A stretch of DNA of 64,000 bases from an uncultured archaeon. GTDB lineage: Archaea; Aenigmatarchaeota; Aenigmatarchaeia; CG10238-14; SCSR01. Each line of letters starts with the position of its first letter. Positions within the stretch are counted from its first letter, which is position 1. The stretch lies in contig CAZICS010000001.1 in NCBI GenBank assembly GCA_964537835.1, positions 54,275 to 118,274 on the forward strand. The letters run 5' to 3'. The notes below the pieces were generated by a model. It ran no database searches. It was not told the origin of the DNA and was given only the letters and a program-made list of their open reading frames with translations. Position numbers and translations under genes: made by a program. Shown piece by piece: positions 9,501-47,761 of the stretch.

Positions 9501-12500
9501 TTATTCCTAATAGTTCACCATTCTTTAGGAATTTAACCGAATAATTAGCTATAGATTGAGTAGTGTTACTATCTCTTACATGACAGGTAATTGTTATTGG
9601 CACACCTGCTGAAGAACTTGTTCCATTGGATGGAGAAATAGAATCTAATTCGCTCCATCCATATATGTAAACTAAGCTACTGTTGCTATTAGAGTCATAA
9701 TATTCCCTTGAAGCGTTCGCATAAATTATTTCGCTACCAAGCTTGTAATTCTCTGGGACATCCCATAGAGTATTATAACCACTTGCTAAGAGATGCCAAC
9801 TAGAATTATACCAGTTTATGGTTGCATCTGCTATTTGCTGATTACAATCATCGCTTACGCTGGCATTCAAAGTAGTTTTAATCCCCCTATTGATTATAGT
9901 TCCTGTTAATGGATGAATAAGTGAAACGTTCAATTGACCATAAACTGTTAAAGTAACGTTTGATGTGTTAACAATCTTATAACAGCTAAATCCATCTTTT
10001 TCTACAGTTCCACCAATCCAGTATTGTTTTCCAGCTATAGTATCGCAAGTTGGGTCATGGTAAGCGTTACAATGACCGTTCAAGGAAGTACAGTTATATG
10101 CTAGCGTATAAGTTGATCCATCTTCAGTAACCCAAATGGTTCCGTTGGCTCCGGTAACATAAGCTCCATTATCTGAATCATAAATTATAAATTCTAGGAA
10201 TGCCTGATTATTCCCTATCCTTCTTACACTTGAATTGCTGGCTGGATTTATGCTCAAGCTTACATCATCTCTTTCCAAAGTAATATTTTTAGAAATTGTT
10301 TCGTCAGTGAAGTTGAAAGGATCTGTTGTATTGAATTTGTAGTAGAGATAAGGAGATTGTCTAGCATAATCTTCGCATGTAAATCTATGTTTAAACGTAA
10401 CGTCTACGCTTATTCCTTGAACGCTCTTCGACTCAACCAAATACCAAGTTATATTGTCATAGCTCTTCCATAAGCTTAGATTATTTATATTTAGGTCGGC
10501 ATCTGTGAAAGTAACTGTAAAGGTATAGAGTTCTCCCCAACCTCCGAATGAGTGGTCAACTCTTGGGTTGCTTAAAGAAGGTTTATCTCCAAGGAAGAAT
10601 GCCTTTACCTTTAGTGTGGAGTTGCTAGCATAATAATCTTTGCTTACATCCATACTAACATTATACCATCCTTTTGGCTTTCCTGCTGTGCTTTTCGTAC
10701 AATTATACCATCCTTGTCCTTCATCCCAGCCATCATTATCTGCTATAGTGCACTGATAAGGAGAACCCACTTGAGGTATGAACGTATAAACAACAGTTGC
10801 ACCTTCAACAGCTTCACATTCGTCATGTAAGCTTCCATTTATGGATACAAGATCACCTCTTAAGTATCCTTCCCCATCTGGATAGACGATTGAAGGTAGC
10901 AATAGGGATTTAATTGTTAGAGTATAATTGGTTGAGTTCTTATCCTTATAACAAACATCATTATAAACTCCGCCAAACCACTTTTGAACACCTGTTTTGA
11001 AGTCACATCTTGTTTGCCCAGGAGGTAACTCTAGCGGGAATTTATAAATCAAGTTACTTTCTAGGTCTGTTTCTGTAATCTTTTGGCTAGCAAAAATATT
11101 ACCATCCTTAGTTACCCAAAAGCTTCCATTTACTCCATAACCTGCAAGATTTCCTGAGTCCGCATCTATAACCTTTAGAGTTAAGTTTATGTAAGCACTT
11201 CCATTTCTCCAAACCCATTCGTTATCCCCGCTAACCAATTGCAAACTTACATCATCCTTTTCTAAGGTGAAATTCTTTGGTTCGATAGTAGTTTCGTACA
11301 ATTCTCCATAAAGCAATGGACTGTTAGGATCATCTGTTGCATTAAACTTGAATTCCCAAATATGTGGATAAGGATCGTCTCTGCTTGCTTCACAGCTCCC
11401 TCTTGTCCAGCTTAGGGTTACAGTTTTGTTTATAACTGGAGAATCTAAATTCGTTTTATTTGCTTGAATCCAACTAGTTGAACCATACCTTCTTACGTAT
11501 AAAGTTAAATTGACAAAATCATAATCCTCATCTGTTACTGTAACATTGAAGTAGAACCTTTCTCCCCATCCTCCAACCTCACTACCTTGAGCAGATATTA
11601 CAGAGAGATTAGATAAAACTGGTTTTGTTTCTATGAAGAATTCTTTTGTTCTTGTTATAGACCTATTGATGAAGTATGGACCTGAAACGTTTATCCTTAC
11701 ATCGTACCATCTTGCCTTCATGTCAAAAGTATTTCTGTTACATCTATAAACTCCTGTTGCAGGGTTTGTTATTTCTGTACAACTATAACTTTTACCCGTC
11801 TCATTATGGACAGCTTCCATGGTTATTATAGCTGGGTCTATCTCACCACCACAGTCATCCTTTATTGCTACCTCTTCAGCAATTCCAGGATAGCCTGCAT
11901 CCAAAGTTACATTTTCTTCTGAGCGTAAGACTGTATCATCTGTATAATCTCCTTGTCTATATCCACTTGGATAATAGACGAAATCTCCATATATTTCTAA
12001 AGTGTAGTTTGTTGTATTTTGTTGAATAAAGCAAGCATCAGTCACACTCCCTTTCCATTTCTGCAACCCAGGATAATAATTACAGTCTGGATTGAAGTAA
12101 TAGGTTACGTATCCAGAAGAGTTTGTTTTATTAGTTTGCGCTAGGAAAGTGCTTCCATCTTTGGTTACATAGAAGGTTACTGTAGCATTATAAGCTGGAA
12201 CATTTCTATCTGTGTCATTAACTCCTAGTACAAGCAAAATAGTATTTCCTATATCGCTATCAGACCTATTAACCTTAGAATTATTCCCTGAAATGTAATA
12301 GATTACTACATCATCTTTTATTATGCTTGGAGCGGGTATGTTGCTAGTATTAAATATGTTTGTTCCATCATCGATTTGCCATTTGAAGTAAACCAAGCTC
12401 GTATTTATTTCACTACATTCAAAATTACTAACGTTTACTTCACATGTTCCTTTTCCATTGTAAACAGTGTCATTACCTCTATAAACCCAACCCTTTGAGG

Positions 12501-15500
12501 TATAGGTAAACAATTTGCAAGTCACGTTATCGAATTGAGCATCATCTATATCTACTCTAAATGTAAAGGTTTCTCCCCATCCTCCAACTTCAGGATAAAC
12601 GCTTTCATTTTCTGCTATTGGTGGGGTGTTATTTAGATAAATCCAATCTTCGAAGATAGTCGAGTTCGAATAGTAATAATCTCTCGATGAGTTAACTCTT
12701 ATATCATAATAACCTCCTTTATGGAAGCTTGTATTCCAGGTTGAATAGTACAATCCATTACCTTTCTCGTTCGCTGGATAAGGTTCAATTAGTCTAATTT
12801 CTCCTATTGAAGAAATTTCTTCGAACGAAACATTTGCTGAACTAACATTTTCTCCGCACTCTCCTTGAATTAAACCAGTAACATTAATAACATTTCCAAC
12901 AGGGATTACACTATCTTCTTCAGGTTCAACTAAGAAATTCATCAATTGCCCTATTAAAGTAATTTGTTGATTTCCTGTGGTTGCTGTAAAGTAACAAGCA
13001 TCTTCTAGGTCAATCTTCCAGTACTGAATACCAACATCAAAAGTACAATTTGGATCAAAGGTATAATTAAAGTAGCCGTTAGTTTGAGTTACTAATTTCT
13101 TGTCAAACAAGAAGTTCAAGCCATCTGTTGTTATATAAATACTTCCGTTTACGTCAGCAAAGTCTATTTCCGTTCCTTTTATAGTGTCATAGAACTTAGC
13201 AGCAAACCAAGCGCTATCATCACCAGGTCTTGTAATTTGAGTTTTCGACCAGTCTACATCAGCTACATCCGCTTGGTCTTTTGTAATTGTTATAGAACTT
13301 GATTTTTCATCCGTATAGTTGAAGTTATCGCTTGCGTTTATTTTATACATCTTACTTCCTATATCGCTATAAGTTCTGTTGCAAGTAAAAGTAATCGGAT
13401 AGAATTCTATATTAGTACAATTTCCAACAGCTGGAACACAAACTTTTTGATCAGCTAATTCCCATTCTCCAGTTAGATTAAGCCAGAAGTAAACGTTTAT
13501 AGTAGAACCTAGTTGAGCATTGTAATCTTCATCTTCAACGCTGAATGGGAAGTGCCAATTATCTCCCCATCCTGCCGAACCAGTATCTGTATAAACAGTT
13601 CCTAAGGTAATAACAGGCTTTGAAGCAAGATAGTATGAGTTTATAGTCAAATTAGTTTCACTTGCATTATAATACTCTTTTTCAGCTTTGATTGAAATGT
13701 TTGTATAACCATAGAGCCATGTTGGTTCTGGTTGAGCAGTAGTATCTGCCCTGAAAACACACTTATAAATTCCAGGAGATTCTTCAACTATCTGACCTGG
13801 TGGACTTTGATCTTGCACGCAATCTTTCTCTGAAGGACTTGCACCCAATTGTTGAGATTTAATGGTGACGCTTGCATTACTTACACCTCCGCATTCGTCA
13901 GTTACATTAACTCTTACAGGTACGTCTTCTATACCCTTAAGGAATAGTTTAGCGTTTAATGGCTCCAACAATTCTATTTGGAGAGGAAGTGTAGTTATGT
14001 TTATTGAGAATTCACTTGAATTAGAAGCCTTGTAAGCTTCTGAATACAAAACACCAGCTTTCCATTTCTGTGGTCCAACTTCATAGCTACAGTCAGGATC
14101 AAATTCTCCAGCAGAAGTATTTATAAAGCCGCTTGAGAAAATAGCAGGTACTTCTGAATAAGTTGAACCATCTTTAGTTACCCATATTCTTACATTAGAG
14201 CTTAAAATACCAGCTATGACATCGATTCCTTTATCTATATCGTAAGTTTTAACGCTTAGCTTCTGATAACTATCGTCAGCTCTGTAAACGCTTGTTTCAT
14301 TACCTTCTGCATGAATTAGAAGCAAATCATCTTTCCCTATAACAAAACTTCCATTTCCTACCTCAAAAGTATTGTTAACAAAATCTTTAGTCGTATTCCC
14401 AAATACATCTTTTACTTCACTTACATTAAACTTGAAAACATGTGTTCCTAATCCAGGATTACTGTAAGTTGGCCATCCTTCTATTTTAAATGTAACTGTT
14501 ACATTAACACCTTGAACGCTTGAATTTGTCATCGGGATTGGCAATGGTTGAGCCCAATCTCCTTCCACTAAGCTAGAGTTAACCCAGAGTTTAACTTCTA
14601 AGATATCATCATCCTCATCTGTAACATTAACCCTAAAGTACCAAGTTTCTCCCCAACCACCATCTCCAACATTCTGTTGCGAGTCATAGCTTATCACATA
14701 AAAGTCTGTAGTTAGGATTGGCTTAGTTTCAACCCAATACCCTTTTTCCCAAATTTGGAATTGGTCTATGGTTTCATTAGAGTTGTAATATTCTTTGCTT
14801 ACATTAAACCTTACATCCCAACCCTTGGCAGAAAAGCTTGAAGTATTGATTGTACAATTGTAATAACCGCTTCCTTCATTCAATACAGGGTTACAATATT
14901 TCACATCATTTCCTTGAATCGAAGAGAAGTTAACGCTTGCATCCTGAACAAAAACATTGCAGTCATCAACAACATAACCTCTTAGCAATACATTTTGTCC
15001 ATCTGGATAATTTCCTCTTAAGTATTTCCCTCCTCTAGGTTGAGTTATAACAGGTTTTAGGTCTCCAATAATTGTAAGTGTAGAGTCACTTATGTTTTTG
15101 TCTATGTAGCAAGCATCCGTTATTCCAGCTTTCCAATTTTGTAAACCTACCGAATAACTGCAATTTGGATCGAAATAATAGGTTGCATTCCCTAAGCTAT
15201 CCGTTTGATTTATTATATCTAGCTGATAATTAGAACCATCATGAGTAACCCAGAAGCTTACATCAACACCTTCAACTGTAGAATTCTTCTCCACATCGAA
15301 AATGTTAACTGAAAGTAATACAGCACCAATACTCCTATTAACTATTGAGTTATTACCTTGGATTAGAGCTATAACTGCTTCGCTTTCTTTCAACTTAGGT
15401 GCATTGATTGGAGTTGTATTGTAATAATTAGCCGGCTCCCCATTCTTTATCTCCCACTTAAACCAATTATCATTACCTATATCGCTGCAAGTGAAACCTT

Positions 15501-18500
15501 GGTAAGGAACCCAGCAAGTTCCTTTAGTAGGTGTACCAGGGGTTCCTGTTATGGTATAACTTCCTACTTTCTCCCAAGTTATTCCATCATCCTTGCTTAT
15601 GTATAAATTACAAGTTATTGTATCTCCTTCTTGGTCATAGATATCGATCGTAAAGTTAAAGTAGCTTGACCATCCTTTATACTCATCAAAGCTTAATTCT
15701 TCCCAGTCACCTAATACATAATTATAAACATAAACGCTAACATTCTCGCTTGTAGCGTTCACATTCTCTAGCCAGAACCAATTGTTATAGAGTGAAGAAT
15801 TAAAGTTGTAGTACTCCTTGCTTGCATTCAACCTAATACTCCAATATCCTTCTTTCTTAGCAGTAGAATCCCAAGTACAATTATACCATCCATCATACTC
15901 ATTATAAGCTGGAGTACAACCCTCCCAATTACCCAAAGGACTTCTTAACTCAATACTAACGCTAGCATTAGCTATTAAACCTTCATTCAAACAATCACTA
16001 GTAGTATTAAACCTAATCAAAATCTGATCAGTAACATTGAATACAGAATTATAAACAGGTACCAACAAATTATTCTTCAATTGGCCACGAATGGTTATCG
16101 ATTGAACTGTGTATCCGCTGATTGCACTAGAAGTATAACATTCATCACCCACATCCATTCTCCAATTTTGTATACCTACTGAGTAACTGCAATTTGGATT
16201 GAAATTATAGCTTAGATAACCTGAACTATCAGTAGTTAAAGCGATAGGCGGACCATAGTTCGCATTATCATAGGTTATTCTAATTGTACCATCAACTCCA
16301 CTTCCAACATATTCTCCTCTATCCCTATCATAAACTTGGGCTTGCAGTAAAACTGTTTCATCTTCTCTGTCAACTTCGCTTGGAGTTGTTGTTGCATAAA
16401 GAACGACATCATCTTTAATTATTTGTTGTTGTTGAGTTGTTGAAACTGTGTAATTCCAATAGTCTGTTGCGGTAACATTGAAAATTCTAGTTCCCATATC
16501 AGAGCAAGTGAATGTATTCTTGTAAGTGATGGTTTTAGTAATCTTACAATCAGGAGCAGAACAAATGCTTGAGTTTAACAATTTCCAGCCATTTGTAGTA
16601 TTACTCCATAAGCTAACGTTAAGTTTTTCAAAACTAAATGTTCCTTGATCTTCATCATACAGATCTATATCGAATATCCAAGTTTCTCCCCAGCCATAAG
16701 GATTAACAGAACTTCCAAAAGAATCTTGGGTTGTTATAGTTAAAGCACTTATAGTTGGTTGAGTAACCAAAACAAATGCATTCTCTTTAAGCAACACATC
16801 TGAACTATTGTAATAAGTCTTAGAAGCATTTATGGTAGCGTTATAATATCCTAAAGTCCAGGTTGAAGGATCGAAGGAATAAGTTACATAACCGCTCGCA
16901 TTGGTAAAGGCTTGAGCCGAATGAGTAGTTGCACCCTGTTTGGCTTTAAGGTCAACTAAAGCTGATGCTACTCCACCACAATCATCGTAAACATAACCTA
17001 GATAATCTACAGTATCTATACCCTTCCTATAGCTTTCACCATTTGGTTTGATTAAGCTAACTTCCAACGGTGTTGTTATCAAGGTTAAGTTCCATGCTGG
17101 GTTTGCGGGAGTGCTCCAAGTTGGCTTATAGCAGCTTTGTCCAAAGAAGACCTTCCATTTTTGAGGTCCTATATCATACAAACATCTATCTGAAGATGGG
17201 AAGTTATCAGTAATATATCCATTTGGTTCTATCGTATTTAGTTCTAAATCTTTCCTATAATTACTTCCATCATAAGTAACCCAGAATTGACCTAAATCAT
17301 TGTAAGCAACAGGGTTACCCGTATCTAAATCTTGAATTTGTACTTTCAGCGGAACCCTTTCACCATTGGTAACATTACTCCTATTAAGGATTGCATTATT
17401 CCCGAAAATCAAACTTATGCTTATGTCATCCCTTTCCAAACTAAAGCTTCCTACGGAAGATTCAGCATAATCCTTCTGAGAGCTAGCTGGAGTAACAGTC
17501 GAATAATCATCAGTACCATTAAAGAAGAATTCATGCGTAGCGTTAGTAAGTAAATCATCGCATACAAATGATGTAGTGAATTCTATTATTGCACTTTCAA
17601 CACCAGCAGCTTTGCTTTTTCCGGTAATCGGTGGTTTCACGCTCCAGCTTCCACCTCCAGGTCTCTCGTAGAACCATACTTGAACTTGATCTAAGTCTTC
17701 ATCCGTAACATTAACTCTGAAAGTCCAAGTCTCCCCCCATCCACCTATATTCCCTCCTTGTTCTGACTCGACGCTTGTTGATATTAATTGAATTGTTGGT
17801 AAAGTTTCTATCCAGAATGCATTTGTTTCTGTATAATCTACCAAATTATAGAATTGCTTCTCAGCATAAACTCTAATATCATAATACCGAGGCGACTTTC
17901 CGCTTGAATTGAAGGTTGTATTGTAATAGCCTAAGCTTTCTTGAACATGTTGCAAGTAGAAGATATCGTTAGTGTAAGTACTCTTAACTGAAATATTTAG
18001 GTAGTCTGGGTCGATTAAATTGTTACAATCCTCGCTTATGTTAAACCTTATGGAAACATTTTCTCCACGATAAAATTCTTCTGCATTCAATGGTTGAATT
18101 ACTTGAGTTGACAAGCTTCCTTTAATAGTTAGATTCCATGTGTCAGAGTATACGTCAAAATAACATGTTTGACCTTCTATAAAGGTTGTCCAGTTTTGAT
18201 ACCCAACTTGATAAGTACAATCTGGAGAGAAATCATAAGCTGCATAGCCTAAGCTCGTATTAACTTCAGCTGCTGTCAAATAATTACTTCCATCGTAAGT
18301 TATGTTGAACTTAACTGGTGTATTATCTGCAACCGCACTTCCTTTATCCTGGTCATACACATAAACCTTTAGGGTTAAAGTTCCAGAATTTCTATTAACT
18401 TCTTTCCCATCTCCGCTTACAATACTTATTTGTAAGGTATCTTTGGTTATGTTTGGTCCTTGTGAAGTTTCGGTATTAACTGTATTATACCCATCATCTA

Positions 18501-21500
18501 AAACAAAATAGTAATAATTATCAGTTCCTATGTCAGAGCAGGTAAAGTTAATTAGCCATGAACATAGACCATGGCCTCCGGTTATTGTAATCGGGGTTTG
18601 AGATTCAAAATAGCTACCTCCATCTGTCGAAATGTAAAGGGTACAAGTGACATCATCGTTGTCAGGATCATCGATTGAAATCGAATAGTTATAAGTTGTG
18701 CCCCACCCTCCTTCATTTGGAGAAACAGGTATTATCGTGTAAGTGGGTGGAGCATTTTGTAAATAGAACCAGTTGTCATACCAAGTTGAGTTTTTATGGT
18801 AATAGTTTCTAGTTGCATTCATCCTTATATCCCAATATCCTGGTGTCTTTAGAGTAGAATCCCAAGTACAGTTGTAATAACCATTTCCTAAATCTGTAAC
18901 AGGATAGCATTCTTCAATAACATCCAAAGGAGATCTCAGATTTATGTTAACTGTAGTCTCATTTAACAAACCTTCTTGGGAGCAATCTGAATAAACACTT
19001 CCATTTATCGGAATGAGAGTTGTTGTCTGGAAGGTTGAGTCATATTCTGGATAAGTAAGGTTGACTTTAAGTTGTCCATAAATGGTAAAGAGAACAGAAT
19101 CACTTTCTGCATCTTTGTAACAGGATTCTCCTATGGTTGCGATTCTCCAATATTGGGATCCTACAGTAAAGCTACAATTTGGGTCAAAGTAAAATCTAAC
19201 TTTGGAGTCTGCTTCAGTATAGTTAGTAAGCCAGATTAAGTATTCACTTCCGTTCCAAGTAACCTTAAGTTTGGTTTCGACACCAGAACCAACTGAAGTA
19301 TCCCTATCCAAATCGATAAGTGTTGCGACGAACTTAGCTTTATCAGTAAACTCCCTATCAACTTCGCTATCGGACAAAGCTGGTTCAGCAATTATCTGGA
19401 CATCGTCTTTTGCGATAGTAATTGTATCAGAAGTATTGTAACTATATCCATAAAAGTCTGTTGCTGTCAAATTCCATTCTCTTGTTCCTACATCTTGACA
19501 TGCAAAATCATCTTCTTGGATAAAAGTATAGCTGCACGGACTTGCTGTGCAAATCGTTGAATTCAATAATTTCCATCCAGAAGCCAAGTTAACCCATAAA
19601 CTAACATTTACTTCATCTTCTCTAGGAATAATCGCTAAATCATCATCTGTTAGAGTAAAACTAAATTGCCAGGTTTCTCCCCATCCTCCAGTTGTTGAAC
19701 CTTCTTCTGAAACAGCTGAGTAAGAGGTTATTTGTGGTTTTGTAACTAAAACAAAAGCATTCTCTTCTGTCCAAACAGAACTTGAATTGTAGTAAATTTT
19801 GCTTCCGTTGAAAGTAACATTCCAATAACCTAGATAGCTATTAGGCCATCCTGCTGTGTCAGTAGCAAGGATTGTGCAGGAATAATACCCATTCCCTTCA
19901 TCTGTTACAGGAGTGCATTCTATGTCTGTAGTTCCTTTGACTATGTGAAATTCTCCATTTCCATTCGGGATCAATCCACAATCATCCTCTAACCAACCCC
20001 TGAGCAGAATGTCATCTTCTCCTCTAACAAAGGATGTTCCTCCTGTAGGTTCTGAAACATAAGCTTCTAAAGCTTGAGTTATAATTGTAAAGGAGTAATT
20101 TGTTGAATTAACATCTTTATACCAATCATTCCCTACAGTCCCAACTTTCCATTTCTGGGGACCTACTTGATAGCTACAGTCTGGATAGAACTGATAGCTA
20201 ACATTTCCCAATTCGTTACCAGTTCCTGTTGTAAAGTAGCTAGGTGGGGTTGGATGAGCAACAAAATTAGTGTTATTCGTAGTAATGTAAAATCTAACCT
20301 TAGCTCCTCCTACAGCAGCGTTTTTATCCGTATCTATAACTTTAACCTTGAAGGTAACGTTTTGTAAAGGTTCTCCTAAAGAAGCACTTCTGTTTACAAC
20401 ACTATTATTCCCTTCCAATAGTTGGATTGCTATATCATCTTTCTCTATCGTAAATGTAACTATTGAAGTATTGGCAACATTACCATCATCATCACTTACG
20501 TTAAAGAAGAGTTCCCAATCTCCTATATAGCTTCCCGTCGCCCATGTTTTTGAAAATTGGACTTTCACATTGGTTCCGCTTACACTAGAATTACACCCAT
20601 GCAAAATCCAAGCAGTATCACCAACTCTTCTGTAGTAAGAGCAAACCGTTAGTGTATCATAGTCATAATCTGTGGCATTAACCACGAACCACCAATTCTC
20701 ACCCCAACCTCCTAAATTATTGGTCCCCTCATTAATTTCTTGCTCGCTTATCGCATCTTCTCCAACTAACAAAGGAATAGTTTCAACCCAGAAAGCTTGG
20801 TATTTTGTTGTTGAATTATCATTATAATCATCTTTCTGCAAGAAGGAGGTTACATCATACCATTGAGTTGGCAGGGAAGAAGTATTAAACGTACAACTGT
20901 AGTAGCCAGGCTCTTCGAAGTTTATAGGTTCGCAAACAAATTCTTCCCCTGTTTGTTGGGATTTGTAAGTGAAATTCATTTTAGAAAAGCCGGTTAAATT
21001 CACAGAGCAATCATCGTAAGTGTGAATTCTTATGGTTATATTATCTCCTCTCAAATATTTTTCGCTGCTTGGCTGAAGAATATCATTTAAAATACTTCCA
21101 ACTACATTCACCGCAAACTCACTACTATTAACATCTTGGTAACAAGCATCTGTAATTCCTGCTTTCCAGTATTGTTGTCCAACTGAATAACTGCAATTTG
21201 GATTGAAATAGTAGCTTGAATTTCCCTGAGAATCTGTTTGGTTTAATAAGTCAAACTGATAGTTAAGATTATCGTGAGTTACCCAGAAGCTAACATTAAT
21301 GTTTTGGGCGTATGCATTTTTTTCAACATCGAATACATTAACTCCTAGCCTTATTGTGTTTCCTAATTCTACATCACTCCTATTAACATAACTGTTGTTT
21401 CCTTCTATCAAGCTTATTCTTGCTAAGGATTCTCTTAGTTCTGGAAGTTGAATTGGTGTTGTGTTATAGTAATTAGAAGGCTCACCATTTTTAATTTCCC

Positions 21501-27500: not shown

Positions 27501-30500
27501 AGCAGTTTATGCAAATCATGCTATCTATAGGTTTCCATTCCTGCCCAACTACTCTATGCCATGCATAAACAGTAACATTCCTCCCAAACCTATCCCTTAC
27601 CCATACGCTAAAAGTAAAGTTCTCTCCCCATCCACCGCTTGAAGCTTCAACACCGTTTATGTACAAAGTTGTATTTTCTAGCAAAGGCGCATAAGTATAA
27701 ACTTTTGATTTAACGAACAATTCCTGAGTTTCGTTGAATACTTTGCCATAATTCCACCTGTATGCAAGTTTTGTTACAGAAACGTTAGCAAAAGGATTTG
27801 CTGTCGCGTCTGTATGACCAAATATTTTTATTTTTCTTGTCGCTAACTTAAACGAATCTTGAAGGTTTGGAATAATGCTCGCGTTTGCCCAAACGGTTTC
27901 TTCAGATGGTTCAAAAACATAATGTTGATGAATAGTTTGATATTCTCCGCTATCTTTAGCTATTTCTATACTCATTTCTCCTATTGTAACATTATATCCA
28001 GTGAAATGATGTAAGTGTTGAATGCCAAGCCATGTTAAACGTTCATAGGGCATGGAAGGATGCTGGAATGTGTGCATAACTTCAGTCGTGCAATTATGGT
28101 TAGAGCAGAGATATGAAACAGAATCTTCATAATAGCTTGAGCCAGTAGTGTTTTTAACCCCGAATGGTTCTAAAACTATCTTTCCTTCATAGCTACAATT
28201 CAAAGTAAAGTTGAGATACTCGCTTGATCTTGAGGGTAGCTCAGAAAGATTCCATTTAATTAATCTTTCAGTTTTGTTCCAATCGCCTGTAGTCCAAGTG
28301 ACATTACAATAACTAGGTATCGGTAGATAAATCGTCCAGTTAGTAGCGTTAACATCCCCTATGTTAGTAACTTTCAAGCTGAAGTTGTAGGTCATGTTTG
28401 GCTGGATGCTTCTAGGTTCCTCCCAGGGATAGGCCTCTCTCTGTTCTACTAGCAAGGAATATTCAAGATGGCTTTCGCTTGTATAGTTCGAAGTTTGAAG
28501 GTAGTGTCTCTTATACTCTTTTTGAATTCTTCCAGCATATTGGAGTTCCCAGTTCATATAACCTTCTGTGCTTGAAGAAGTTGGGGATTTCACTTGATAG
28601 CTTGCAACCCCATATTCGTTTACTCCTATATACCCAATAACCCAGGTTATAACATTATTCTCTAAGTCAACGCTTGCTGATACTAATTGAAGATTGCTTG
28701 ATAAAGTTGGGTTTGCTGGGGTCCACCCAGAGCTTATGTTCTCTTTCAGAGTTAGAAGCTCATTAGTAGCGGCACATCCTTTGTTGTGAATGATCAAAGC
28801 AGATTCAAAAACTTTATCTGGAGCTACATAGGTTGGAGTTTCCCTTATTATTTCTATAACTGGTTGAATAGCGTTTGATATGTTTATTTGCTTGATTTGG
28901 GTAAAGTTTAACTCTAAATCAGGATAGCTAGTGAATATACTAACATTGATACTAACATTTTCGATTGAAGATGAGGTGTTCAAGTTGAACTTGACGCTTA
29001 TTTCTTTTTCTCTATGATCATGGAAGTAGTAATAGCTTGGCTCATAACTCCATCCAGAAGGAACTTCTAAGCTAATGTTTATATCACTTTCTTCCTCTAG
29101 AGTTTTAATCACATCTACTATCACTTCTTCTGTCGTGTTTGGGCAAGTGTATTCGTTTACATAAACATAAGTCTTTGGTTTGAGGTAATCGAATTCTTCT
29201 ACTCGCTTATCTATCTCGCTTGTATTCAGTTTAAGTTCTGCTACCCAATAATAGACTTTTTCTTCAAACGTAGAAAGGTCGATATTGTAGAAGTAAGATT
29301 TGGTTATTCCGCTAGAAATTTCCAAAAATTGCTGAGTGCTTGAATAGAATACTTGCTCTCCATCTGTCAGATTTAAAGTTAAATTGCCTGAATAAGTTTC
29401 TGAGAATGGATTTGCTATTATAACAGTTAGATTAAACAAATTGCCATCTTCGCTAGACCATTGGATGTCAGAAATCTTCACCTTCCTTACAAAATATCTT
29501 TCTAAGGATATTTTGTCCACATACAAAGGTTTGTTACCTTCATTTTCTAAGAGAATTAAACACTTGCTCTCGCTACTCAACCCTATCTCATCGTTTAGAA
29601 AGTCAACTTTAGTTAGACTTAAATTCTCCCCAACTTCAAATTCTTCGAATCTTAACTTCCATTTGGTTCCATTCCAAATTTCTATTCTTGCTGTGGTACT
29701 ACCATTGGCTTCCCAGAATAATTTCAGTCTATTCAATCTTCCTATTCCACTAGTACAATTGAATTTAACCCGAAGCTTCTTCCCAGGCATCACCAAAACT
29801 TCTACCGTTGAATTATCTGCTGAAGTGCCTAGACTTACATCTTGGCTAGTAACTCTATCGGTTACATCAGTTTCATTACTTGCTTCGCTTACGTTTAACT
29901 CTTCATACTCATAGGCCTTTACTGTTGTTGAATTCCAATCTTCGTAATAGTTTATTGGTGGAATTTCATCGCTTGTATTGGCTGTTACGTTAAGCTTATA
30001 ATAAGGAGATTTTTGAGTTAAAGAAGTTACATTGATATCCCAATGAACTGGAACATATTTTGTCTCACCTAAGCCAACTTTTATCTTTCCAAGGTATTGG
30101 TTTTTGCTTGGATTGACATTCCAGTTTGGTGCAAGTAAGGTTACGTTTGTGCTTGTTGCATTTCTGTCTTTAATCCTTAAAGTAGCATTAAGGCCGAAAG
30201 GCTTGTACTGGAATACTTCCTGAGGAGCAAAAACTTGGGTAACATTAAATTCTGGGCAAGCGATATCAAGATAAACTGTATATTCGCTACTATAGCTTGA
30301 TTGATAGCAAGAGTCTGCATCGCTTACCTTAACCCTCCATTTTTGCCATCCTGGGTCATACTTACAGCTTCCATAGAATTGATAATTAAGGTAGCCAGAA
30401 GAATTCGTTTGAGCTTCGCTCGCTTCAGTGAGCCAAATGTTGGAGTTGTTTAAGGTAACTTCTACATTAACCTTTGCTGTTTCTGTTATCAATCCAGAAG

Positions 30501-33500
30501 AATCTGTATCGTTTAATGCTAGAATAAAAGTAGTTGGCTGCTCTTTTGTTACTGTATCACCATCTCCGCTTATTAGAGTGAAGCTAACATCATCTTTTTC
30601 TACAGTAAAACTATTATCATCGTTCACATAATCTCCTTCCGCAACGCTTGTTTCATAACTATTCCCTTCTGTATCCGTAGCATTGAACTTAAAGTACCAA
30701 ATGCCAATGTCAGAGCAAGAATAGCTTTCTGTCCAATAGACTATTGTCCCACTTGGATTCACTATTTGTTGTGGGGAACCAACTTGGTACCAAGGTCCTG
30801 TCAAGGAAGTTGATCTCCACAACCAAACTGTTACCGTATCTGAATCATCAGTTACATTTACAGTGAAGTTAAACGTTCTGCTCCATCCTTCGCTTCTCGG
30901 AGTTACGTTAGCTTGTTTAAGGGTTGGAATTACTTTAAGGTAGAAAGCATTTTCAAGTGTGTAACTATCGTTTATATGATAGCCTTTCTCTGCTACTATT
31001 GTAACATTATACCATCCTGCAGGTTTTCCTGAAGAATCCCAGGTGCAATTATAATATCCATTTCCTTCATCGTTCGCATACCCAGAAGAAGGACATCTCC
31101 ACCATCCGCTAGCATGAGTTAAGTTAAAGTATACGTTTGTTTGAGTAACATTTTTGAGGCAGTCATCTGTCAGGTTACCCCTTAGTCCAATTTGGTCTCC
31201 TCTTGTATAGTTAATGCTTCCGTCTGGTTGGGTAAGATAGACGCTTAGAGTTCCTATTACAGAAACTTTGAATTGCTCGCTAGTGTTATCGTACCATCCT
31301 TGGCTATTGGTTACGTTAACAACCCAGTCTTGCAAACCAGCTTCATAATTGCAACCCGGTTCAAATTGCAAGTAGTAATGAGTTGTGTTAACAGATTCTA
31401 ATTCTTCAATCCAACCAGAACCGTTCCAAATCCAGAAGTGCAGGTTTTCGGATGGGATAGAAGTTATATAACTCATTGCATCGAAGTCATAAACTCTAAC
31501 TGCTAATTCAACCCAGTTAGTGCCCTCTCTCATAACTTCTGAATTATTTCCTCCAGCAAGTTCTATTTTAATGCTATCCTTGGTTACTGTGTGGAACTGA
31601 ACAGAAGTTTCTGCTTGATTATCATGCTGGTCTGTAGCATTAAACTTGAAATACCAAGTTGTTATATTATCTTGAGTATACTCAACAGGAAAGATTACTT
31701 CCTGCTCTTGAACTGTATTGCTTACTTGAGTTTGATTAACGAGCACCCATTGCCAGCCTGTTTGAGAAGAGTTTAGCCAGAAGTAAACGGTTACCGTATC
31801 GTTATCTTCATCGCTCACGTTAACCTTGTAATAATAAGGTGAAGCTCCCCATCCACTCTTGCCAGTTGAGGAAATAACTGAAGGAGCTTCTAGGAGTGGA
31901 GTAGAGCTTAAGTAGAATTGAGTGGTATCAGATCCTGGATTGTAATAATTTTCTTCTGCATAGAATTTAACCTCATACCATCCAACTGGTTGAGAGCTAG
32001 AATCCCAAGTACAATTATACCATCCTAAACCTTCTTCTTGAGCAACACATTGGCTTACATTACCGCTTGCTAAATGGGTTAAATTAAAGTAAATAGTCGT
32101 TAATCCGGTAACATTCCTTGAGCAATCCTCAGTTACATTACCCCTCAATAAGATGGAATCTCCCTGAGTAAAGTTAGCTCCAATGGGTTGCTCTATCTTC
32201 GGAATCAAATCTGCATAAACCTTAACTGTTAAAGTAGCATATGGATAGCTTGAGTTATCCGTGTAATAAGGAGAATTGCTCACATTGACTCTCCATTTAT
32301 GCTCGCCAGCTGGATATTCGCAGCCTGGGTTGAAATCACGATAATAGTCTGTTGAATTAGCGGATTCTTCAGCTTCATTAGCTAGCCAATCACTTTCATT
32401 GTAGATGTAGAAAGTTATTTGATCTAAGGTTATGTTAGGTATTCCAGGTTGGGTTTCATTCAAAACATTCCTATCTAGCACCAAATCCCAAACTTTAGCG
32501 CTTAGCCTGATAAAACCAGAGCTTCTATTTACTGTAGAAGCATTATTACCAAAATTGCGAATTTCTATGGGTTCTTTAGTGATGTTGAAAGTATGCTGAA
32601 CTATCCAGCTTGATTCAGAATAAGTATTGTTAATATAACCGCTCAAAGAGCTTGCATTGAAGATAAATTTCCACTGACCTATGTTATTCCAAGTAAGGTT
32701 CTTCTCATGATAGAGTGAAGTTTTAGTCGGATAATTACCTTGCCATTGGTATGCTTGTACCCATCCATGAGTTTCATTCCATAACCAAAGATAAACAGTT
32801 GTGAAAGTATTATCAGGGTTGGTGACCTCTATAGTAAAGTTGAATGGAGACTTACCCCAAGGCTGATTTCCTTGAGGAAGTTTTAATGGATTATCCAATA
32901 AGATTTTGCTCCTCAAGAAGAAAACACTTTCATTGAAAGCATAACCATCCCAATATCCAGTTTTATTCGAGTAAATGCTAACATTGTACCAACCGTAAGG
33001 AAAGCTCGAGTTTGTTTGAATTTGACAAGTGCCTGTAATGTCAGCAGTGCAATTCTTCTCAAAATTGTCATGCCTTATGCTTATTATTATGGTCGAATCT
33101 ACTGTTCTATCATTACCACAATCGTCTGTTACTTTTGCTTTCAAGGTTATCATATCGCCACGAGTGAAGTTTTGACCTATTGGTTCAAGCAGCTCATTGT
33201 ACAAATCTCCTTTTAGGGTAAAGTTTAACACAGAAGTAACATTATCCTTAACGTAAGAATCTCCGCTAGTTCCACCATACCAGCTATGCAATCCTAAATA
33301 CCACTTATTTTCATCACTACACCAATAAACATTCTTATCAGCTCCTGTACCTCCACGCATAGTCCTGTTAATCCATCCATCGTTTGATGTTAGTAGAGGT
33401 GGGGAAGATTCATAGCTCCCATAAGTGAAAGCATCTAGCCATATCTTACCAAAGCTACCGGTTGGATAGGTTTTATTGTCTCTATCCCAAACTCTTACAG

Positions 33501-36500
33501 AAAATGTGGTAACCGCAGCAGACCTATTAACTATGGAATTGGGAGATGGTGTTATGTTATAAACGTTTACATCATCCTTCTCCACGCTATAATCCTTTCC
33601 ATCCAATTCAGAATTTCCGTCTGCATTACTTGCATTGAACTTGAAATGCCATGCTCCTATATCGCTTGGCAAGTAATCATAAGTAAAGTTATGCTCTTCC
33701 CATTGCAAGCAATCTATACAAGTCCAAGAATCGACTAAGCTATAAGTTCCTCCAGTCTTCTTATGCCATAGGTAAACAGTTACATTCCTCCCAAACCTAT
33801 CCCTTACTTTTACGCTAAAGTTAAACTCCTCTCCCCACCCTCCTACGCTTCTAGAAGAATCCCCATTTATATAAAGAGTAGCATTCTCAAGCAAAGGAGT
33901 ATAGGTATAAACTTTTACCTTAACAAACAACTCTTGACTTTCGTTAAACAACTTACCATAACTCCAAGTATAATTTATCTGGCTAATCGTAACATTTGCA
34001 AATTCAGACTGAATACCGTCAGCATATGCATGCAACTCCATTTTTCTTGCTTTTGAAACAAAGTTGATAGATGGATAATAAACGACGATAGCTTTGCCAT
34101 TGTAATTTGCTAGGCTATAGTTTTGCCAAGTATAAGCATAATTATCTGAATCGTCTAGCAAGTAAACGTAGCCTTCACCTATGGTTAAGTTTGATGAAGA
34201 GAAATTGTAGAGTATGGTTAGATTAATGTTTGAAATTTTTTCATAGGGCAAAGAAGGATCGTTAAATATATGCGTTACTTGGCTAGTGCAATCGCTTCCT
34301 GAGCAACTATAAGAAGTGCTATCGCTATAGGAGATTTCATTTCTTGTATCGTTTAATGCTTCTACTCTAAACAACTGTTTTCCAGTTTGAGAACAGTTCA
34401 AAGTAAAGTTCAAGTAAATGGAGCTCCTGCTTGCTAATCCAGAAATGTTCCATGCTATTGAATTTTTAGTAGCGTTTATTACGCCTCCATCATAAGCATT
34501 AATTATTTCGCAAGTCGATGGAATGAACAATTCGACGCTCCAATTACCGCTTGTTACATCCCCTATGTTAGTAACTTTCAAGCTGAAGTTGTAGGTCATG
34601 TTTGGCTGGATGCTTCTAGGTTCCTCCCAGGGATAGGTTTCTCTTTGAATGGCTATCAAATTAAACTCTAGATGAGATTCACCCGAATAATTTGCTGTAT
34701 AGAATTTATAGTTTTCAAATTCTCGTAATTGTTTATTACCATCATAAGTTAAGTTCCACCGAGCATAACCCTCTTCAGCGTTGCTAACAGGTGCTTTTAT
34801 CTGATAGGATAGAACAGCATATTTATTAATGCCAATACTTCCAAGTTGCCATGTTATTAGATTATTCTCTAGGTTGACGCTTGTTGAAACCAGCTGAATA
34901 TCTCCTTCTATTCCTGGGTTTGCCGGAGTCCACCCAGGCTTAATGTTTTCTTGTAAAGTCAAATTATTTACTGGAGCACATCCCTTGTTGTGAACTATTA
35001 GCTTGCTTTCAAAAACTTTGCTTGCTCCTATGTAGCGTGGAGTTTCTCTTATTACTTCAATAACTCCTTGGTTAGCATTAGTCAGGCTTATGTTTTGTTT
35101 TGTTGTAGCTTGCTTATGAGGTAATTGGTATACAATTGAAACATTTAGGTTAGCTGTTTCTTCTGAGCTAGAAGAGGTTAAATTAAATTTAGCTTCATAA
35201 GTTTTTTCTTCATCAGCATTTATTAAAATGTAGGCTGGAGAGTAACTCCATCCAGAAGGAACTTCTAAGCTAACATTATAAGTAACCTTATCTTGATAAG
35301 CATGAGGTATCAAAACTTTCAGGCTTTCGGTAGTTGAAGGACAAATGTATGGATTATATCTTGTCTCATAACTTACATTCTTCCTTACTATACTCTCTAT
35401 TAACTGGCTTGAATTTCCATCATAGAAAATATAAGCTTTTATGTAATAAGTTCCAGCAGACCAGCCACTAACATTTATGTTTTCGATAGCTTCGCTGGTT
35501 ATAGCTCCTTGTGCCAAAGAAACTGTTTTATGAGTGTAGTTTACCACATTGTTACTTTCATCTGTCAGATTAACCCAAAGGTCTGCGTTTATCGTCTGAG
35601 CCAGAGAATTGAAAATTTTTACAGTAACATTTAGGTAATTATCTGCTAAATCTAAACTATAAGTTTCACTTTCGCTTACAGAAGGAACTATATCAACAAC
35701 TTTTGCCTTTCTTTCAAGATACGCTTTCATGGTCGCAGAATTTATTTGCACCTCATTTTCTCCTAGGTTTTCTATTCTAAGCAAGCAATGTCCAGTTCCA
35801 TTCGGTGAAAGGAATTGTTTAATCAATCGAATATCCTCTGTCACATCCCCAGAAACTGGAAGATAGTTTACTATCTCAACAAATTGAGTTGAGTTATAAA
35901 TGTAAATTCTAACTTCACTTCCAGCACTTGAATTCATTCCCATTGTAAATGAAGTTAGTCTATAATCTGCAGCTAGGCAATTAAATGCTAAATCTTGATG
36001 CTCATCGGGCGAAACTGTTAAAGGTAATGAGCTGGATGGGCTTGCTTGATAGTATTCATAATTTTTAACAAAGAATGAAACAGAATCCTCTATTCCGAAT
36101 GAATTGTTAACTTTAATCGTTAGGTTAAATCTACCAGAAGTAGTTGCGTTTACAAGCCAGGTAACATCTTTTGTAGAACCTTGAGCAACACCTCCTAAGT
36201 ATTTAACTCTATTATCAACTTGCCATTCTGAGGGTGCAATCAATTCGGCATAGACTTCGCTCGAGTCTGCTACATAGCTTGTTATCGTTGCCTTGATAGT
36301 AAAGTTTTTGTATTGTAAGGTTTCGTTAGGATGATAATAAAATTCAATCGAAGGAGTTGCCTGACAGCCGGTTAAATCTAAAGTTATGGTGAAATTCTCG
36401 CTAATGTTGTAATTATAAGCAGGGTCATCGCTAGCTATATAAGCACGCCATTCTTGATTTCCATTAACATATTCACAAGTTGGTTGGAATTCTAAGGTTG

Positions 36501-39500
36501 CGTAGCCGGCAGAATCTGTGTAAGCATTTCCTATAACCTTTTTACCTTCAGGATAATTAGCATGCAATAATTCAAAGGTTACTTTTGCGCTTGGAGTTAA
36601 ATTATAAGTTTGTGCTATCAAGTCATAAACTTTAACAGATAGATTGACAGCTTGGCTTAAGCTTGCTAAAGAATTATTTCCTTGATCTCCGTATTCGATG
36701 CTTACATTATCTTTGGTTAAAGTAAAGCTGTCATAACCAGAGGTCGATTCTGTAGCTAACTCAAACTTAAAGAACCAAGTTCCTATATCCTGATAGGTGA
36801 AATTCTTGTACCAATAAATTTGTTTGTTCAGGCAATCAGGATATTTGCAAGTCACTGGAGTTTGATTAACACAATCGCTACATTCGGTAAAGCCTGTGGG
36901 CGAAGTTTTTGCTAGCAAGATCTTCACATCATTAGGATTAGTATCACCGCTTGATGCAATCACGCTGAAATTCCAATTCCTATATCCCCAGCCATGGGAA
37001 GTTGGAACAACCTGCGGATTTTCAAGCTTATAAATCGGATAAAGATAGAATAAACCATTTTCTCCATAATCAGCAGTTTGGTTTGGATAATGGTATTCCT
37101 TTTCTGCCATCATAGTTGTATTATACCAACCCATTGGTGTAGTTATGTTAGTCTCCCAGTCGCAAGTGAAAGCGTTTGAACCTACTTGCGAAACTGGTGT
37201 GCATTCAAAATCTTGAGTTGAATGATTTGCAAAATATCTTACATTCGCTGTTAACGCATCACCACAATCATCTGTAGTTGCACCCAAGAAGCTTATCACA
37301 TCCTCTTGCGTGTAATTAACGCTTCCATCAGGCTTAACAAAATCTAAGATTATATCTCCTTTTACAGTTAGATAGGTTGGGATGTAATCAGAAGAATCGT
37401 TCGAGAAATAGCAGTTAAGCATTGAATCATTAACAACAACTTTCCATTGCTGCTGACCAACTTGGAATTTGGGTGCACCTTCATAATCTCCGCTACAAGT
37501 AGGGTTAAAGTAAAGTTTTACATATCCATCTGAATCGGTCAAATTCTCAAAGTTTGAATCAGAATAATAAGTTGATCCATCGATAGTTACATAAAACTTG
37601 ACTGCAAAATTTGCCAGATAGCTTGAATTTTCATCTTTAACTCTAAATTCTAATAGGTCTACTTGATTTCCTCTTCTATTTGCGATCGAATTATTACCGT
37701 AAATGTATTCTAGGTAAACCTTTTCTTTAGTTATTTCAAACTGATGCTCTGCAGTTTCATTAACGTTTGAAGAATTATCTTCAATTCTAAACTTATACTT
37801 AGCAACTGGGGTTATATCTGAGCAGCTAAATCTTGCAGTAAAATCTATTCTTTTCCAATTTGAACAGGCTAAGCATTGAGTTTTATTGATTTCTTTCCAT
37901 CCAGATCCAGTGTCTACATACAAAGTAATGTTTAAATCATCGCCTTCTCCATCCATTACTTCAATTGAAAAGTTCCAAAGAGTTGCCCAGCCTGCTGAAG
38001 CACCTTCCGTTACTCCATTAACACTTTCATTCGCATGCTTTGGCGGCCAGTTTACGTTAACATAAACCGTGAAATTGTCAGAGCGGTTGTATGCATAGCA
38101 GCTTGAAAGTATAGTGTCTACATAGCCATACCATCTTCTAGTTCCTGTCGTGAAATCTTGGTCCGGAAGGAAGTAGAAGTAAACATGACCAGAAGAATTC
38201 GTTTTATTATTTCCCACATACTTTTCAGGACCCTCATAGCTTGTTGTTGTAACGTTAAACTTTATATAAAGGTCTTCGGTTATTTCTTCAGTTGGATAAT
38301 CTAGATCTTTTGCTTTTAAAATAAATTCTGCTGGTGTTAAAGGTGTTGCAGTAGTTTCATTTCCTGAAACATATTCAATAACTATACTATCTTTTGAAAT
38401 ACTGAACGCTTGAGGAGTAGTTTCTCTTGCATTCCCCTCCGTATCTGTAACATTAAACTTGAAGTTGCGCGAAGGATTAGCAAGATCTGAGCATGTATAA
38501 TTCTTTGTCCACCATAGAATTGTTCCATCACAATTTGTACATTGCTTTGGCTGACCTATTTGAACCCAATTTCCTGAGCCAGCTGGAACTTCTTCCCAAA
38601 GATAGACTGTATCCGTATCTCCCGCATTATCAGTAACATTTATAGTAAAGTTTCTCTCTATACCCCATCCACCAGATGAAGGTGTTACAGTTGGATTATT
38701 AAGAACTGGAGCAAACTTAAGATAGAATGCATTTTCCTTAAAGTCGTAACCATCCCAGTGTTTTGATTTATTAGAAGTCATGGTAACATTGTACCATCCT
38801 GTAGGTGCTCCAGAAGGTAAGGTTATTTCCTTGTAATAAGCCCCCTGTTCAGCTGAATAGAAAACTTGGGTTGAGTAAGTATAAGTGCCGTGGGTAAGAT
38901 TAAAGTAAACAGTAGCATCAGTTATAGTATTTCCACAATCATCGGTTACTGTTCCTTTTAATGGTATAGAGGAATCTTGGGTATAATTGGTTGAACCATC
39001 AGGAAGTAGGATTTGATTAGTTAAAGAACCCTTGAGGAAGAAATCCATCTCACTAGTTGCATTATCTTCCCAGCATACATCATCTTTAACTCCCATTTGC
39101 CACTTGTGGGTTCCTAAATAGTACTTGCTCGTATCACTACACCAGTCATAATGGCTAAATTCTTGCACAAAATATCCTGTAGAGTTAGTGGAAACAGGCC
39201 ATTGGCCAATTTGATTATAAGAATAAATGGACATGTTAAATTTACCGGTAGCTCCATCAGCAGGTTGGTTTAAAGTTGTGTCTTGGACATGAAGTATGAA
39301 TTGAGTTTTTGAAGCACTCCTGTTAATTGTTGCATCGGCATTGGGTGTAATCAGTGTTATAGCATCCTTATTTTTCTCTAAAGTAATTGTCATTATGGGA
39401 TAATCCTCTGGCTCAAAATTCCATGTCTGATTTCTCGTGCATCCACCTCCATTACAATCGGTTGAGTCATCTGTAGCATTAAAGAACCATTCCCATACAT

Positions 39501-45168: not shown

Positions 45169-45342
45169 TCAAAAACACTTTGTACGCTAGCGTACAACAG
45201 ATCTGTATAGATCTTAATAAAGAAAATGTTTGTCGACGGTGATAAACCTAAGCTTTAACAAAAATTTCGAAAGTTCCGACACTTCGAAGGTTAAAAAAAT
45301 TGTCGAAAGTTACTTTAAAATACCAAAAAGTTCAAAATTATT
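45169..45342. promoter_or_regulatory. Divergent intergenic promoter region between the giant gene (minus) and the wHTH regulator gene (plus). It has TATA-like boxes on both strands and palindromic candidate operators.
   Basis: Plus strand: tttaaaata at 45315..45323 lies about 20-28 bp upstream of ATG 45343, implying a leaderless mRNA. Minus strand: ctttattaag-like A/T box near 45212..45222, about 45 bp upstream of ATG 45168. Palindromes lie between that box and the start codon. Confidence 0.5.
45181..45206. promoter_or_regulatory. Perfect 16-bp palindrome tgtacgctagcgtaca (45181..45196) immediately followed by a perfect 10-bp palindrome acagatctgt (45197..45206). Candidate operator 13-38 bp upstream of the giant-gene start.
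   Basis: Direct reading: both are exact reverse-complement palindromes. They are GC-containing in an AT-rich intergenic region and lie between the putative TATA box and the ATG of the giant gene. Confidence 0.5.
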
Positions 45343-47758: not shown

Positions 47759-47761
47759 AAA

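Follow-up and report, generated by a model that had tools for sequence, protein, structure and literature searches.

Among described systems, the closest to the protein considered here are the SPEAREs, giant surface proteins of Nanohaloarchaeota. As set out by Hamm 2019, these proteins reach 8,553 amino acids (aa), are mostly extracellular, and have a membrane helix at the C-terminal end together with an intracellular domain that is conserved; proteomics detected one of them, and the roles proposed were host attachment and pore formation (PMC6642349), with host attachment or secretion proposed more generally (PMC6642349; PMC10266531). The original definition included at least one laminin-G domain together with serine-protease or toxin-like regions in the ectodomain, and SPEARE-like intracellular domains were also reported from Aenigmarchaeota, Micrarchaeota, Woesearchaeota and Altiarchaeales (PMC6642349). 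The P-loop ATPase domain of these proteins was first read as a restriction-enzyme domain; Reva 2023 re-read the intracellular part as a VirB4/TraG-like ATPase with a coiled coil after it, disputed the laminin-G, protease and toxin domains in SPEARE itself, and described a second VirB4/TraG-like ATPase gene beside the nanohaloarchaeal giant genes (PMC10266531). These nanohaloarchaeal proteins are the only candidate giant effectors described so far, and little is known at the molecular level about how DPANN archaea, a group that accounts for much of archaeal diversity, attach to their hosts and exploit them. Here, we have analysed 64,000 nucleotides (nt) of DNA from an uncultured member of the Aenigmatarchaeota (the window), in which a repetitive interval flagged by an earlier sequence-only reading turns out to be the central part of one giant minus-strand protein.

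The open reading frame (ORF) for this protein (2458..45168; all of its features described below lie on the minus strand) encodes 14,236 aa, corresponding to 1.60 MDa unglycosylated with an isoelectric point (pI) of 4.66, and so exceeds the 9,409 aa reported for the largest protein of any cultivated archaeon. The gene would occupy about 4% of a genome of about 1 Mb, which implies strong selection. The chain runs from a cytoplasmic winged helix-turn-helix (wHTH) domain through a membrane helix into an ectodomain of some 13,700 aa, and then through a second helix to a cytoplasmic HerA/FtsK-type ATPase and a coiled coil. The second hydrophobic membrane segment (3562..3675; aa 13832-13869) is followed by the sequence RAAKAAKAR, in keeping with the positive-inside rule, and no N-glycosylation sequons occur past it. 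Pfam, PDB matches and motifs all place the ATPase domain (2674..3528) in the HerA/FtsK superfamily (DUF87): PF01935 reaches 39.9 bits (cut-off 23.2) and HerA_C 22.3 bits (cut-off 22), the best PDB match is HerA 4d2i (E 3.7e-7), and Walker A (AAGGTGSGKT, aa 13921-13930) and Walker B (LLLVYDEVH, aa 14047-14055) motifs are present. The NCBIfam CedD and HerA models fall far below their cut-offs on this domain, which has weak similarity to the CedD and TraD models. The C-terminal coiled coil (2461..2673; aa 14166-14236) aligns to the tail of SPEARE.

Comparison with SPEARE used the sequence of the proteomically detected protein from Ca. Nanohaloarchaeum antarcticus as printed in Fig. S18 of the supplementary information of PMC6642349, an optical character recognition text with a few errors. 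The ATPase region (the C-terminal 362 aa) is 40% identical to it over 359 aa (E 1e-105), and homology extends across a core of about 1,860 aa (2476..8058; aa 12371-14231 against SPEARE residues 4121-5931) with 26% identity over 1,945 columns (E 1e-133). The giant protein therefore has the intracellular homology of a SPEARE as well as its plan of long ectodomain, C-terminal helix, P-loop domain and coiled coil, and both the membership of this family and the cytoplasmic HerA-type ATPase go beyond what the sequence-only reading had described. The other features linked to SPEAREs were not found: Pfam gave no laminin-G, serine-protease or toxin region in aa 1-1900, insert A (described below), the 23 complete modules or aa 11800-14236, and the adjacent downstream ORF, beyond which the window extends for 536 nt, has no P-loop and so is not a second VirB4/TraG-like ATPase. 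Judged by these alignments, the protein is a SPEARE membrane-proximal and cytoplasmic core with a different and much longer distal ectodomain. We consider it likely, at a probability of roughly 0.7, that the flagged region forms the stalk of a giant surface glycoprotein of the SPEARE family in this DPANN lineage, a glycosylated and disulfide-stapled extender of a host-contact machine.

Most of that ectodomain is an array of modules (9625..39732; aa 1813-11848). Using one module (aa 6830-7150) as the query, phmmer found 26 copies, the other 25 at domain E-values from 4.5e-12 to 1.3e-56, and hidden Markov models (HMMs) of the three subdomains (sd1, sd2 and sd3) matched 26, 26 and 23 times respectively, giving 75 beta-sandwiches in a fixed sd1-sd2-sd3 order. 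Complete modules (n=23) are 314-348 aa long with a mean of 332, and the remaining three copies (aa 2157-2382, 2726-2940 and 4751-4960) are missing sd3. Two of these truncated copies are followed by non-module blocks, insert A (33871..36348; aa 2941-3766, 826 aa), made of beta-sandwiches and matching NPCBM_assoc, DUF11 and CARDB of Pfam below threshold, and insert B (27664..30288; aa 4961-5835, 875 aa), its paralogue at 38% identity over 872 columns. The repeat architecture proposed from the letters alone has thus largely stood, in that about 26 copies had been counted and 26 are found, although the array reaches slightly beyond the span of 9660-39500 that had been given, and its copies are not strictly in tandem since the two inserts interrupt them. 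The module length of about 350-400 aa was an overestimate, because the inserts inflated the figure per module. All of the ordered motifs quoted at the time recur in the alignment consensus, which reads GGWGE..F.V.V.D.D.D.V.V.LW and F.C.DIG...FKFNA.D, followed by KDD..I....GN.S.VNR, P.C.Y..G.Q.W........CY.D..S, V.DDC, G.Y.CT and P.G.Y.

Copies share between 17 and 56% protein identity (mean 26.6%), and 21 of the 23 complete modules find their best match in a protein of another organism, often in collinear runs. Recent tandem duplication or concerted evolution of the modules is ruled out by these identities and by the best matches lying in other species. Since nearly all of the modules are closer to those of other organisms than to one another, the array is old, with each position maintained rather than homogenised.

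An AlphaFold2 model of module 12 (23740..24681; aa 6830-7143), for which the input alignment was the protein's own 23 complete copies, is all-beta and contains three sandwiches (sd1 at about residues 1-98, sd2 at 99-212 and sd3 at 213-312), with a mean predicted local distance difference test score (pLDDT) of 94.5 and a predicted template modelling score (pTM) of 0.81; sd1 modelled alone gave a pLDDT of 87.6. The three beta-sandwich subdomains that had been suggested from the motifs are therefore borne out. When the whole module was compared with the PDB using Foldseek, the matches included macroglobulin (MG) domains of C5, C3 and alpha-2-macroglobulin (E down to 7e-13, TM score about 0.3) and the extenders of giant bacterial adhesins, namely 6xi3 (query TM score, TMq, 0.48), 5irb and SiiE 2yn3; immunoglobulin (Ig) and FN3 chains were also matched, and MG, BIg, Ig and FN3 chains appeared at probability 1.00. 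In a separate Foldseek comparison sd1 alone gave nothing below E 1e-3, its best matches (TM 0.5-0.68) being a T-cell receptor (TCR), C5 MG4, PapD, TRAP-beta, FN3 and a surface-layer (S-layer) domain. The modules thus belong to the Ig-like or MG-like beta-sandwich fold class on the basis of the all-beta model and these matches. By hhalign, sd1 and sd2 are distant homologues (probability 87%), sd2 and sd3 are marginally related (45%) and sd1 and sd3 show no relationship.

At the sequence level, none of the 23 complete modules reached the cut-off of a Pfam model, NCBIfam gave zero matches in the modules, and a PDB profile search with the module returned nothing significant (best E 0.11). Sub-threshold Pfam matches were to Big_7 in eight of the 23 (best E 8e-4, below its 24.1 bits), Big_1 in three, Big_13 in two and MG2 in one, mostly in sd3. 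PKD, CARDB, He_PIG and FN3 were absent at E <= 0.1 across the 23 modules and Cadherin matched a single time at E 0.099, whilst matches to CARDB, DUF11 and NPCBM_assoc, either below threshold or lying outside the modules, came only from the inserts and the C-terminal region. The sequence-only reading was accordingly right that the subdomains fit no named family and are not PKD, cadherin or obviously CARDB. It had also held that matches to known Ig-like families would make the modules ordinary, and here the answer is divided: the Ig/MG/FN3-like fold is an ordinary one, but neither the sequence families nor the three-domain unit with its fixed order has a name. In the literature we found no earlier description of the module or of giant Aenigmatarchaeota proteins, what we did find being limited to papers on SPEARE and broad surveys of giant proteins.

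The conserved Trp/Cys framework noticed at the outset is plain in the alignment, with W12, W183 and C238 invariant in the 23 complete copies. C174 is found in 20 of these, the other three having a shifted 'WCSD' cysteine in its place, and C69, C192, C260 and C272 are each found in 17, with the C69/C192 and C260/C272 columns co-occurring without exception. Presence or absence of cysteine per column was then compared over 437 complete modules from 146 proteins, comprising the giant protein and its database relatives. In this set C68 and C194, located in the 'TCSD' motif of sd1 and the 'CYKD' motif of sd2, were both present in 264 modules, alone in 0 and 3, and both absent in 170 (phi 0.99), and C263 and C276, both within sd3, were present together in 331, alone in 1 and 11, and absent in 94 (phi 0.92). 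For C51 and C54, a CxxC pair in sd1, the corresponding figures were 136, 41 and 6, and 254 (phi 0.78); for C176 of sd2 and C240 in the 'DDC' motif of sd3 they were 383, 3 and 31, and 20 (phi 0.55), these last two cysteines being the sole partners abundant enough for each other. This pattern suggests two disulfides between subdomains, one from the TCSD cysteine of sd1 to the CYKD cysteine of sd2 and one from the P.C.Y cysteine of sd2 to the DDC cysteine of sd3, along with one inside sd3 and often a CxxC pair in sd1. Conserved disulfides had been anticipated and covariation supports them, two of the four putative pairs lying between rather than within subdomains. Such inter-subdomain bonds would lock the module into one rigid block, which fits the high pTM of the three-domain chain.

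The array is also rich in sequons, with 464 in 10,036 aa compared with 152 +/- 11 (maximum 182) in shuffles of the same residues, about three times the expected number. Across the whole protein there are 654, or 4.6 per 100 aa, and they are distributed unevenly, with zero in the N-terminal 92 aa and in the C-terminal 357 aa, the two cytoplasmic ends; the neighbouring genes (18 ORFs) have 0-0.76 per 100 aa. The frequency of sequons had been correctly noted, although their spacing in the array (median 17, mean 21.5 residues) is wider than the 10-15 residues suggested. Over the 437-module set the density is 6.0 +/- 1.4 per 100 aa, and in 15 alignment columns at least 30% of modules have a sequon, as with FNAT at column 79 (63%), YNCT at column 275 (54%) and YNVT at column 289 (53%). 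Because the sequons are conserved in position and confined to the predicted outside, we would argue for real, selected N-glycosylation, and these statistics together with the topology suggest modules that are densely modified at partly conserved positions. Heavy N-glycosylation is therefore plausible, with the sequon excess, the topology and the conserved positions all fitting it. A gene for AglB is absent from the 64,000-nt window.

The module is not peculiar to this genome. A profile of it, run against 1.84 billion proteins, matched 919 cluster representatives (362 below 1e-30), all multi-copy, in proteins of up to 6,938 aa. Matches with named sources came from Micrarchaeia, Aenigmatarchaeota, Parvarchaeales ('Haiyanarchaeum'), Anstonellales, Woesearchaeota and a small number of archaeal metagenome-assembled genomes that are probably mis-binned, and all were annotated as 'hypothetical', mostly 'partial'; as far as these matches go, the module is restricted to DPANN archaea. 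The ATPase core occurs in at least 582 GTDB species genomes, and wherever more than 2,500 aa could be read upstream of it (47 loci) the ORF stays open through the whole 10-kb flank, which contains the module in 45. The layout of modules plus ATPase recurs in Aenigmat-, Micr-, Woese-, Nano- and Parvarchaeal genomes, and complete members have about six modules (P0016, 5,175 aa), eight or nine (P0159, 5,226 aa) or, in the giant protein, 26, the highest number among those seen. One fragment from an ENA metagenome (P0001) is 76% identical to modules 11-12 and ends in ...CLLYTSDAADE, which resembles the translation of a sequencing adapter left at the end of a contig; artefacts of this type may be present in other database fragments of the family.

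Directly downstream of the giant gene, and overlapping its end by 20 nt, lies a gene (537..2477, minus strand) for a 646-aa Lys/Glu-rich coiled-coil protein. The core of this partner (aa 214-477) occupies the position immediately after the giant gene in 78 of the 80 related loci, and so we regard the two as a conserved pair. Searches of Pfam, NCBIfam and the PDB with the partner gave low-complexity coiled-coil noise, with no family and no P-loop. In two loci on related Aenigmatarchaeota contigs (L005:12565-20329 and L001:12666-20419) the coiled-coil gene is followed by a ParA/MinD-like ATPase and a small Ras-like GTPase with a 147-aa neighbour, and the same clusters encode a membrane-anchored, sequon-rich paralogue, of about 1,950 aa, of the giant's proximal ectodomain. 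The possibility that this 1,950-aa ORF is itself ATPase-fused is ruled out, as it has no Walker A and instead has a membrane helix and a short coiled coil. These genes may form a conserved surface-machine cluster; the window ends before the position at which their counterparts would lie.

If the flagged region is indeed the stalk of a host-contact protein, its 26 modules would act as a long, stiff spacer resistant to proteases and heat. The cell is very small, and a spacer of this kind would hold the parts that are not modules, namely the two CARDB/NPCBM-like inserts and the N-terminal region, at a distance of hundreds of nanometres from it, within reach of a host cell to whose surface they might bind. 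The membrane-proximal core, together with the ATPase, presumably hexameric by analogy with its family, and the coiled-coil partner, could then couple contact to an energy-dependent step at the symbiont membrane, and by analogy with the FtsK, HerA, VirB4 and Ced ATPases this step may be the translocation of DNA or protein. Several points weigh against this picture and call for some caution. Host binding is proposed by analogy with SPEARE proteins and bacterial giant adhesins, and no domain of the lectin, laminin-G or protease kind was recognised in Pfam scans of the regions examined. Nor does a second VirB4-like ATPase gene of the nanohaloarchaeal type adjoin the giant gene, the downstream gene having no P-loop. 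The putative disulfide pairs are drawn from presence/absence covariation, and the expression, glycosylation, disulfides and localisation of the protein are all predicted. In addition, if the N-terminal helix is not cleaved, both ends would be anchored and the ectodomain would be a loop rather than a free fibre. We have also entertained a bolder arrangement, in which six chains are bundled by a hexameric ATPase ring and the coiled-coil partner into a tubular conduit hundreds of nanometres long, a bridge between DPANN cell and host for the exchange of DNA, proteins or metabolites, with the winged helix, possibly freed by the Hint domain described below or by signal peptidase, reporting contact to transcription; this is speculative and we think it a long shot.

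Two rival explanations accept the protein as it stands and differ over its nature. The modules could be ordinary members of known bacterial Ig-like families (Big_7, Big_1, MG2 or FN3), new only in their copy number, which we regard as unlikely. Their sandwich is certainly generic, given that the module aligns to MG chains (E 7e-13) and adhesin extenders (6xi3, TMq 0.48), that sd1 alone resembles TCR, C5 MG4, PapD, TRAP-beta and FN3 at TM 0.5-0.68, that sd3 draws sub-threshold Big_7 matches in eight of 23 modules along with Big_1, Big_13 and MG2, and that sd1 and sd2 are distantly homologous. However, no Pfam or NCBIfam cut-off is reached in the modules, the PDB profile search gave nothing better than E 0.11 and sd1 has no Foldseek match below E 1e-3. 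None of these families describes the fixed domain order, the cysteine pairs between subdomains or the conserved sequon positions, and the module is restricted to giant proteins of the DPANN type. A role in the structure of the envelope, with the protein coating the cell as an S-layer or sheath-like glycoprotein instead of serving in host contact, seems to us improbable. Archaeal S-layer glycoproteins typically have a heavy sequon load, an acidic pI, beta-sandwiches and a membrane anchor, and the giant protein shares all of these, being sequon-rich, membrane-anchored and built of beta-sandwiches with a pI of 4.66; moreover, one of the Foldseek matches of sd1 is the Deinococcus HPI S-layer protein (TMq 0.68). 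Yet it is more than ten times the size of an S-layer protein, has a cytoplasmic HerA-type ATPase and a winged helix fused at its ends, is homologous to SPEARE proteins and matches no S-layer family in Pfam or NCBIfam, and the range from about six to 26 modules among family members fits a stalk of tunable length better than a lattice.

The remaining rival questions the gene itself, which could be an artefact of assembly or gene calling in which repeats were collapsed or made chimeric, or neighbouring genes fused. Repetitive giant genes often fragment or mis-assemble, most database homologues are 'partial' and the gene of a close relative is split into several calls, but the evidence here leaves it with next to no probability. 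The frame is uninterrupted over 42.7 kb with zero N or ambiguous bases, and a composition-based calculation puts the chance of 14,236 stop-free codons at about 1e-473. Self-comparison of the DNA gave five internal matches with no near-identical repeats among them, the best showing 67% identity across 1 kb, which makes it very unlikely that repeats were collapsed or joined into chimeras. The same upstream genes, gene start and initial 2,541 codons are present in an independently made Logan assembly, the start of the gene is present in run SRR7051320, the reading frame is open across 10 kb upstream of the ATPase in all 47 related loci, as noted above, and the modules are collinear with those of other species.

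Outside the array, the chain has several further parts of interest. The N-terminal winged helix (44974..45168; aa 1-65) is MarR/ArsR-like, with HTH_IclR above its Pfam cut-off, and is conserved in two relatives, P0064 and P0070. Plain signal peptides are found in other members of the family, and the N-terminus of P0022, judged by eye alone, looks to be of the AbrB type. A Lys/Glu-rich linker (aa 66-91) and a Lys/Arg-rich stretch precede the first membrane helix or signal anchor (44830..44895; aa 92-113), which ends in AIA|S and immediately after which the sequons start. The N-terminal ectodomain (39733..44829; aa 114-1812) consists of Big_3_5 (above cut-off) and MG2-like sandwiches, one of which is interrupted by a Hint, or intein-like, domain (43963..44442; aa 243-402). 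This domain has Ser243 at block A, a TxxH motif, a penultimate Ser and the terminal Asn402, followed by Leu at +1, the Leu being conserved in three homologues; Pfam Intein_splicing reaches 22.9 bits, short of its cut-off of 35.8, and the boundaries are conserved in P0064 (annotated by NCBI as 'Hint domain-containing protein') and P0012. A true splicing intein is ruled out by the +1 Leu, and by its motifs the segment is Hint-like and not a canonical splicing intein; it could cleave the N-terminal anchor from the stalk. Directly before module 1 is a Cys-rich segment (39733-40218; aa 1651-1812) that has no family assignment and in which about 20 of 160 aa are Cys, as in CRNVDNGQECEAYTCVSGG...SCGGSACDTGTYPGAC. 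On the other side of the array, the membrane-proximal ectodomain (3643..9624; aa 11849-13842) contains NPCBM_assoc and MG2-, Big_3_3- and Nis1-like sandwiches and a Pro-rich linker (aa 13575-13611).

Upstream of the giant gene, 12-29 nt from its ATG, is an 18-bp perfect palindrome, TTGTACGCTAGCGTACAA (45180..45197), a candidate operator for the divergent wHTH gene (45343-45738, plus strand) or for the giant's own wHTH. A TATA-like CTTTATTAAG lies just upstream of the palindrome, and repeated motifs resembling ACTTTCGAA lie further upstream. The neighbouring genes are of archaeal type, including a geranylgeranyl reductase, UbiA prenyltransferases, TrmB and a cupin glucose-6-phosphate isomerase (GPI). 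The reductase and two UbiA prenyltransferases (45774-50902) adjoin a glycogen-type cluster (50940-59560) comprising two GH57 genes, an amylo-alpha-1,6-glucosidase-like gene, one GT4/GT5 glycogen-synthase-like transferase gene, the cupin isomerase and TrmB. For one neighbouring GH57 protein the nearest relatives that have a name are Candidatus Aenigmatarchaeota. Further on (62231-63727, minus strand), a 498-aa fusion of an N-terminal Mrr-type restriction-endonuclease domain and an AAA+ ATPase with an AAA lid may be a defence or DNA-processing enzyme.

What is new here is a SPEARE core fused, in several DPANN lineages, to a longer ectodomain built of a defined, conserved and unannotated tri-domain module. 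The module profile provides a search tool for hundreds of database entries now listed as 'hypothetical, partial', and at about 330 aa the module is a compact unit for structure determination, antibody production and labelling in cryo-electron tomography. It also carries predictions that are specific to each module, namely four disulfides and about 15 conserved glycosites.

Set beside known systems, the modules have a fold class in common with the MG chains of C3/C5 and alpha-2-macroglobulin and with Pfam MG2, Big_7 and Big_1. MG chains are the top Foldseek matches for three consecutive module domains, and sd3 has weak Pfam similarity to these families. The resemblance is nonetheless limited to a TM score of about 0.3, a sequence identity of about 11% and Pfam scores that are all below cut-off, and unlike MG proteins the module has no thioester or bait region and has a different cysteine framework. 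The extenders of giant bacterial adhesins (MpIBP 5irb, 6xi3, Salmonella SiiE 2yn3 and the LapA type) also string together dozens of tandem Ig-like domains as a long spacer that holds ligand-binding parts off the cell, and they are among the best structural matches of the whole module. They differ in being bacterial, type-1-secreted and rigidified by calcium, with single repeats of about 100 aa that are often nearly identical, and in having no N-glycosylation, disulfide stapling, fused membrane anchor or ATPase. Halomucin of Haloquadratum walsbyi, cited as the previous size record, is likewise a giant (about 9,000 aa) extracellular archaeal glycoprotein, but by its literature description it is secreted and mucin-like with no fused ATPase. 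It is with SPEARE that the likeness is most complete, both proteins being very long, mostly extracellular beta-sandwich chains that end in a membrane helix, a P-loop ATPase and a coiled coil. The giant protein departs from the Nha. antarcticus SPEARE in its tri-domain module, to which no match was found in that protein using the module HMMs, in its sequon density (4.6 against 1.55 per 100 aa), in its N-terminal cytoplasmic winged helix and Hint domain, and in being followed by a gene for a conserved coiled-coil protein rather than for a second VirB4-like ATPase.

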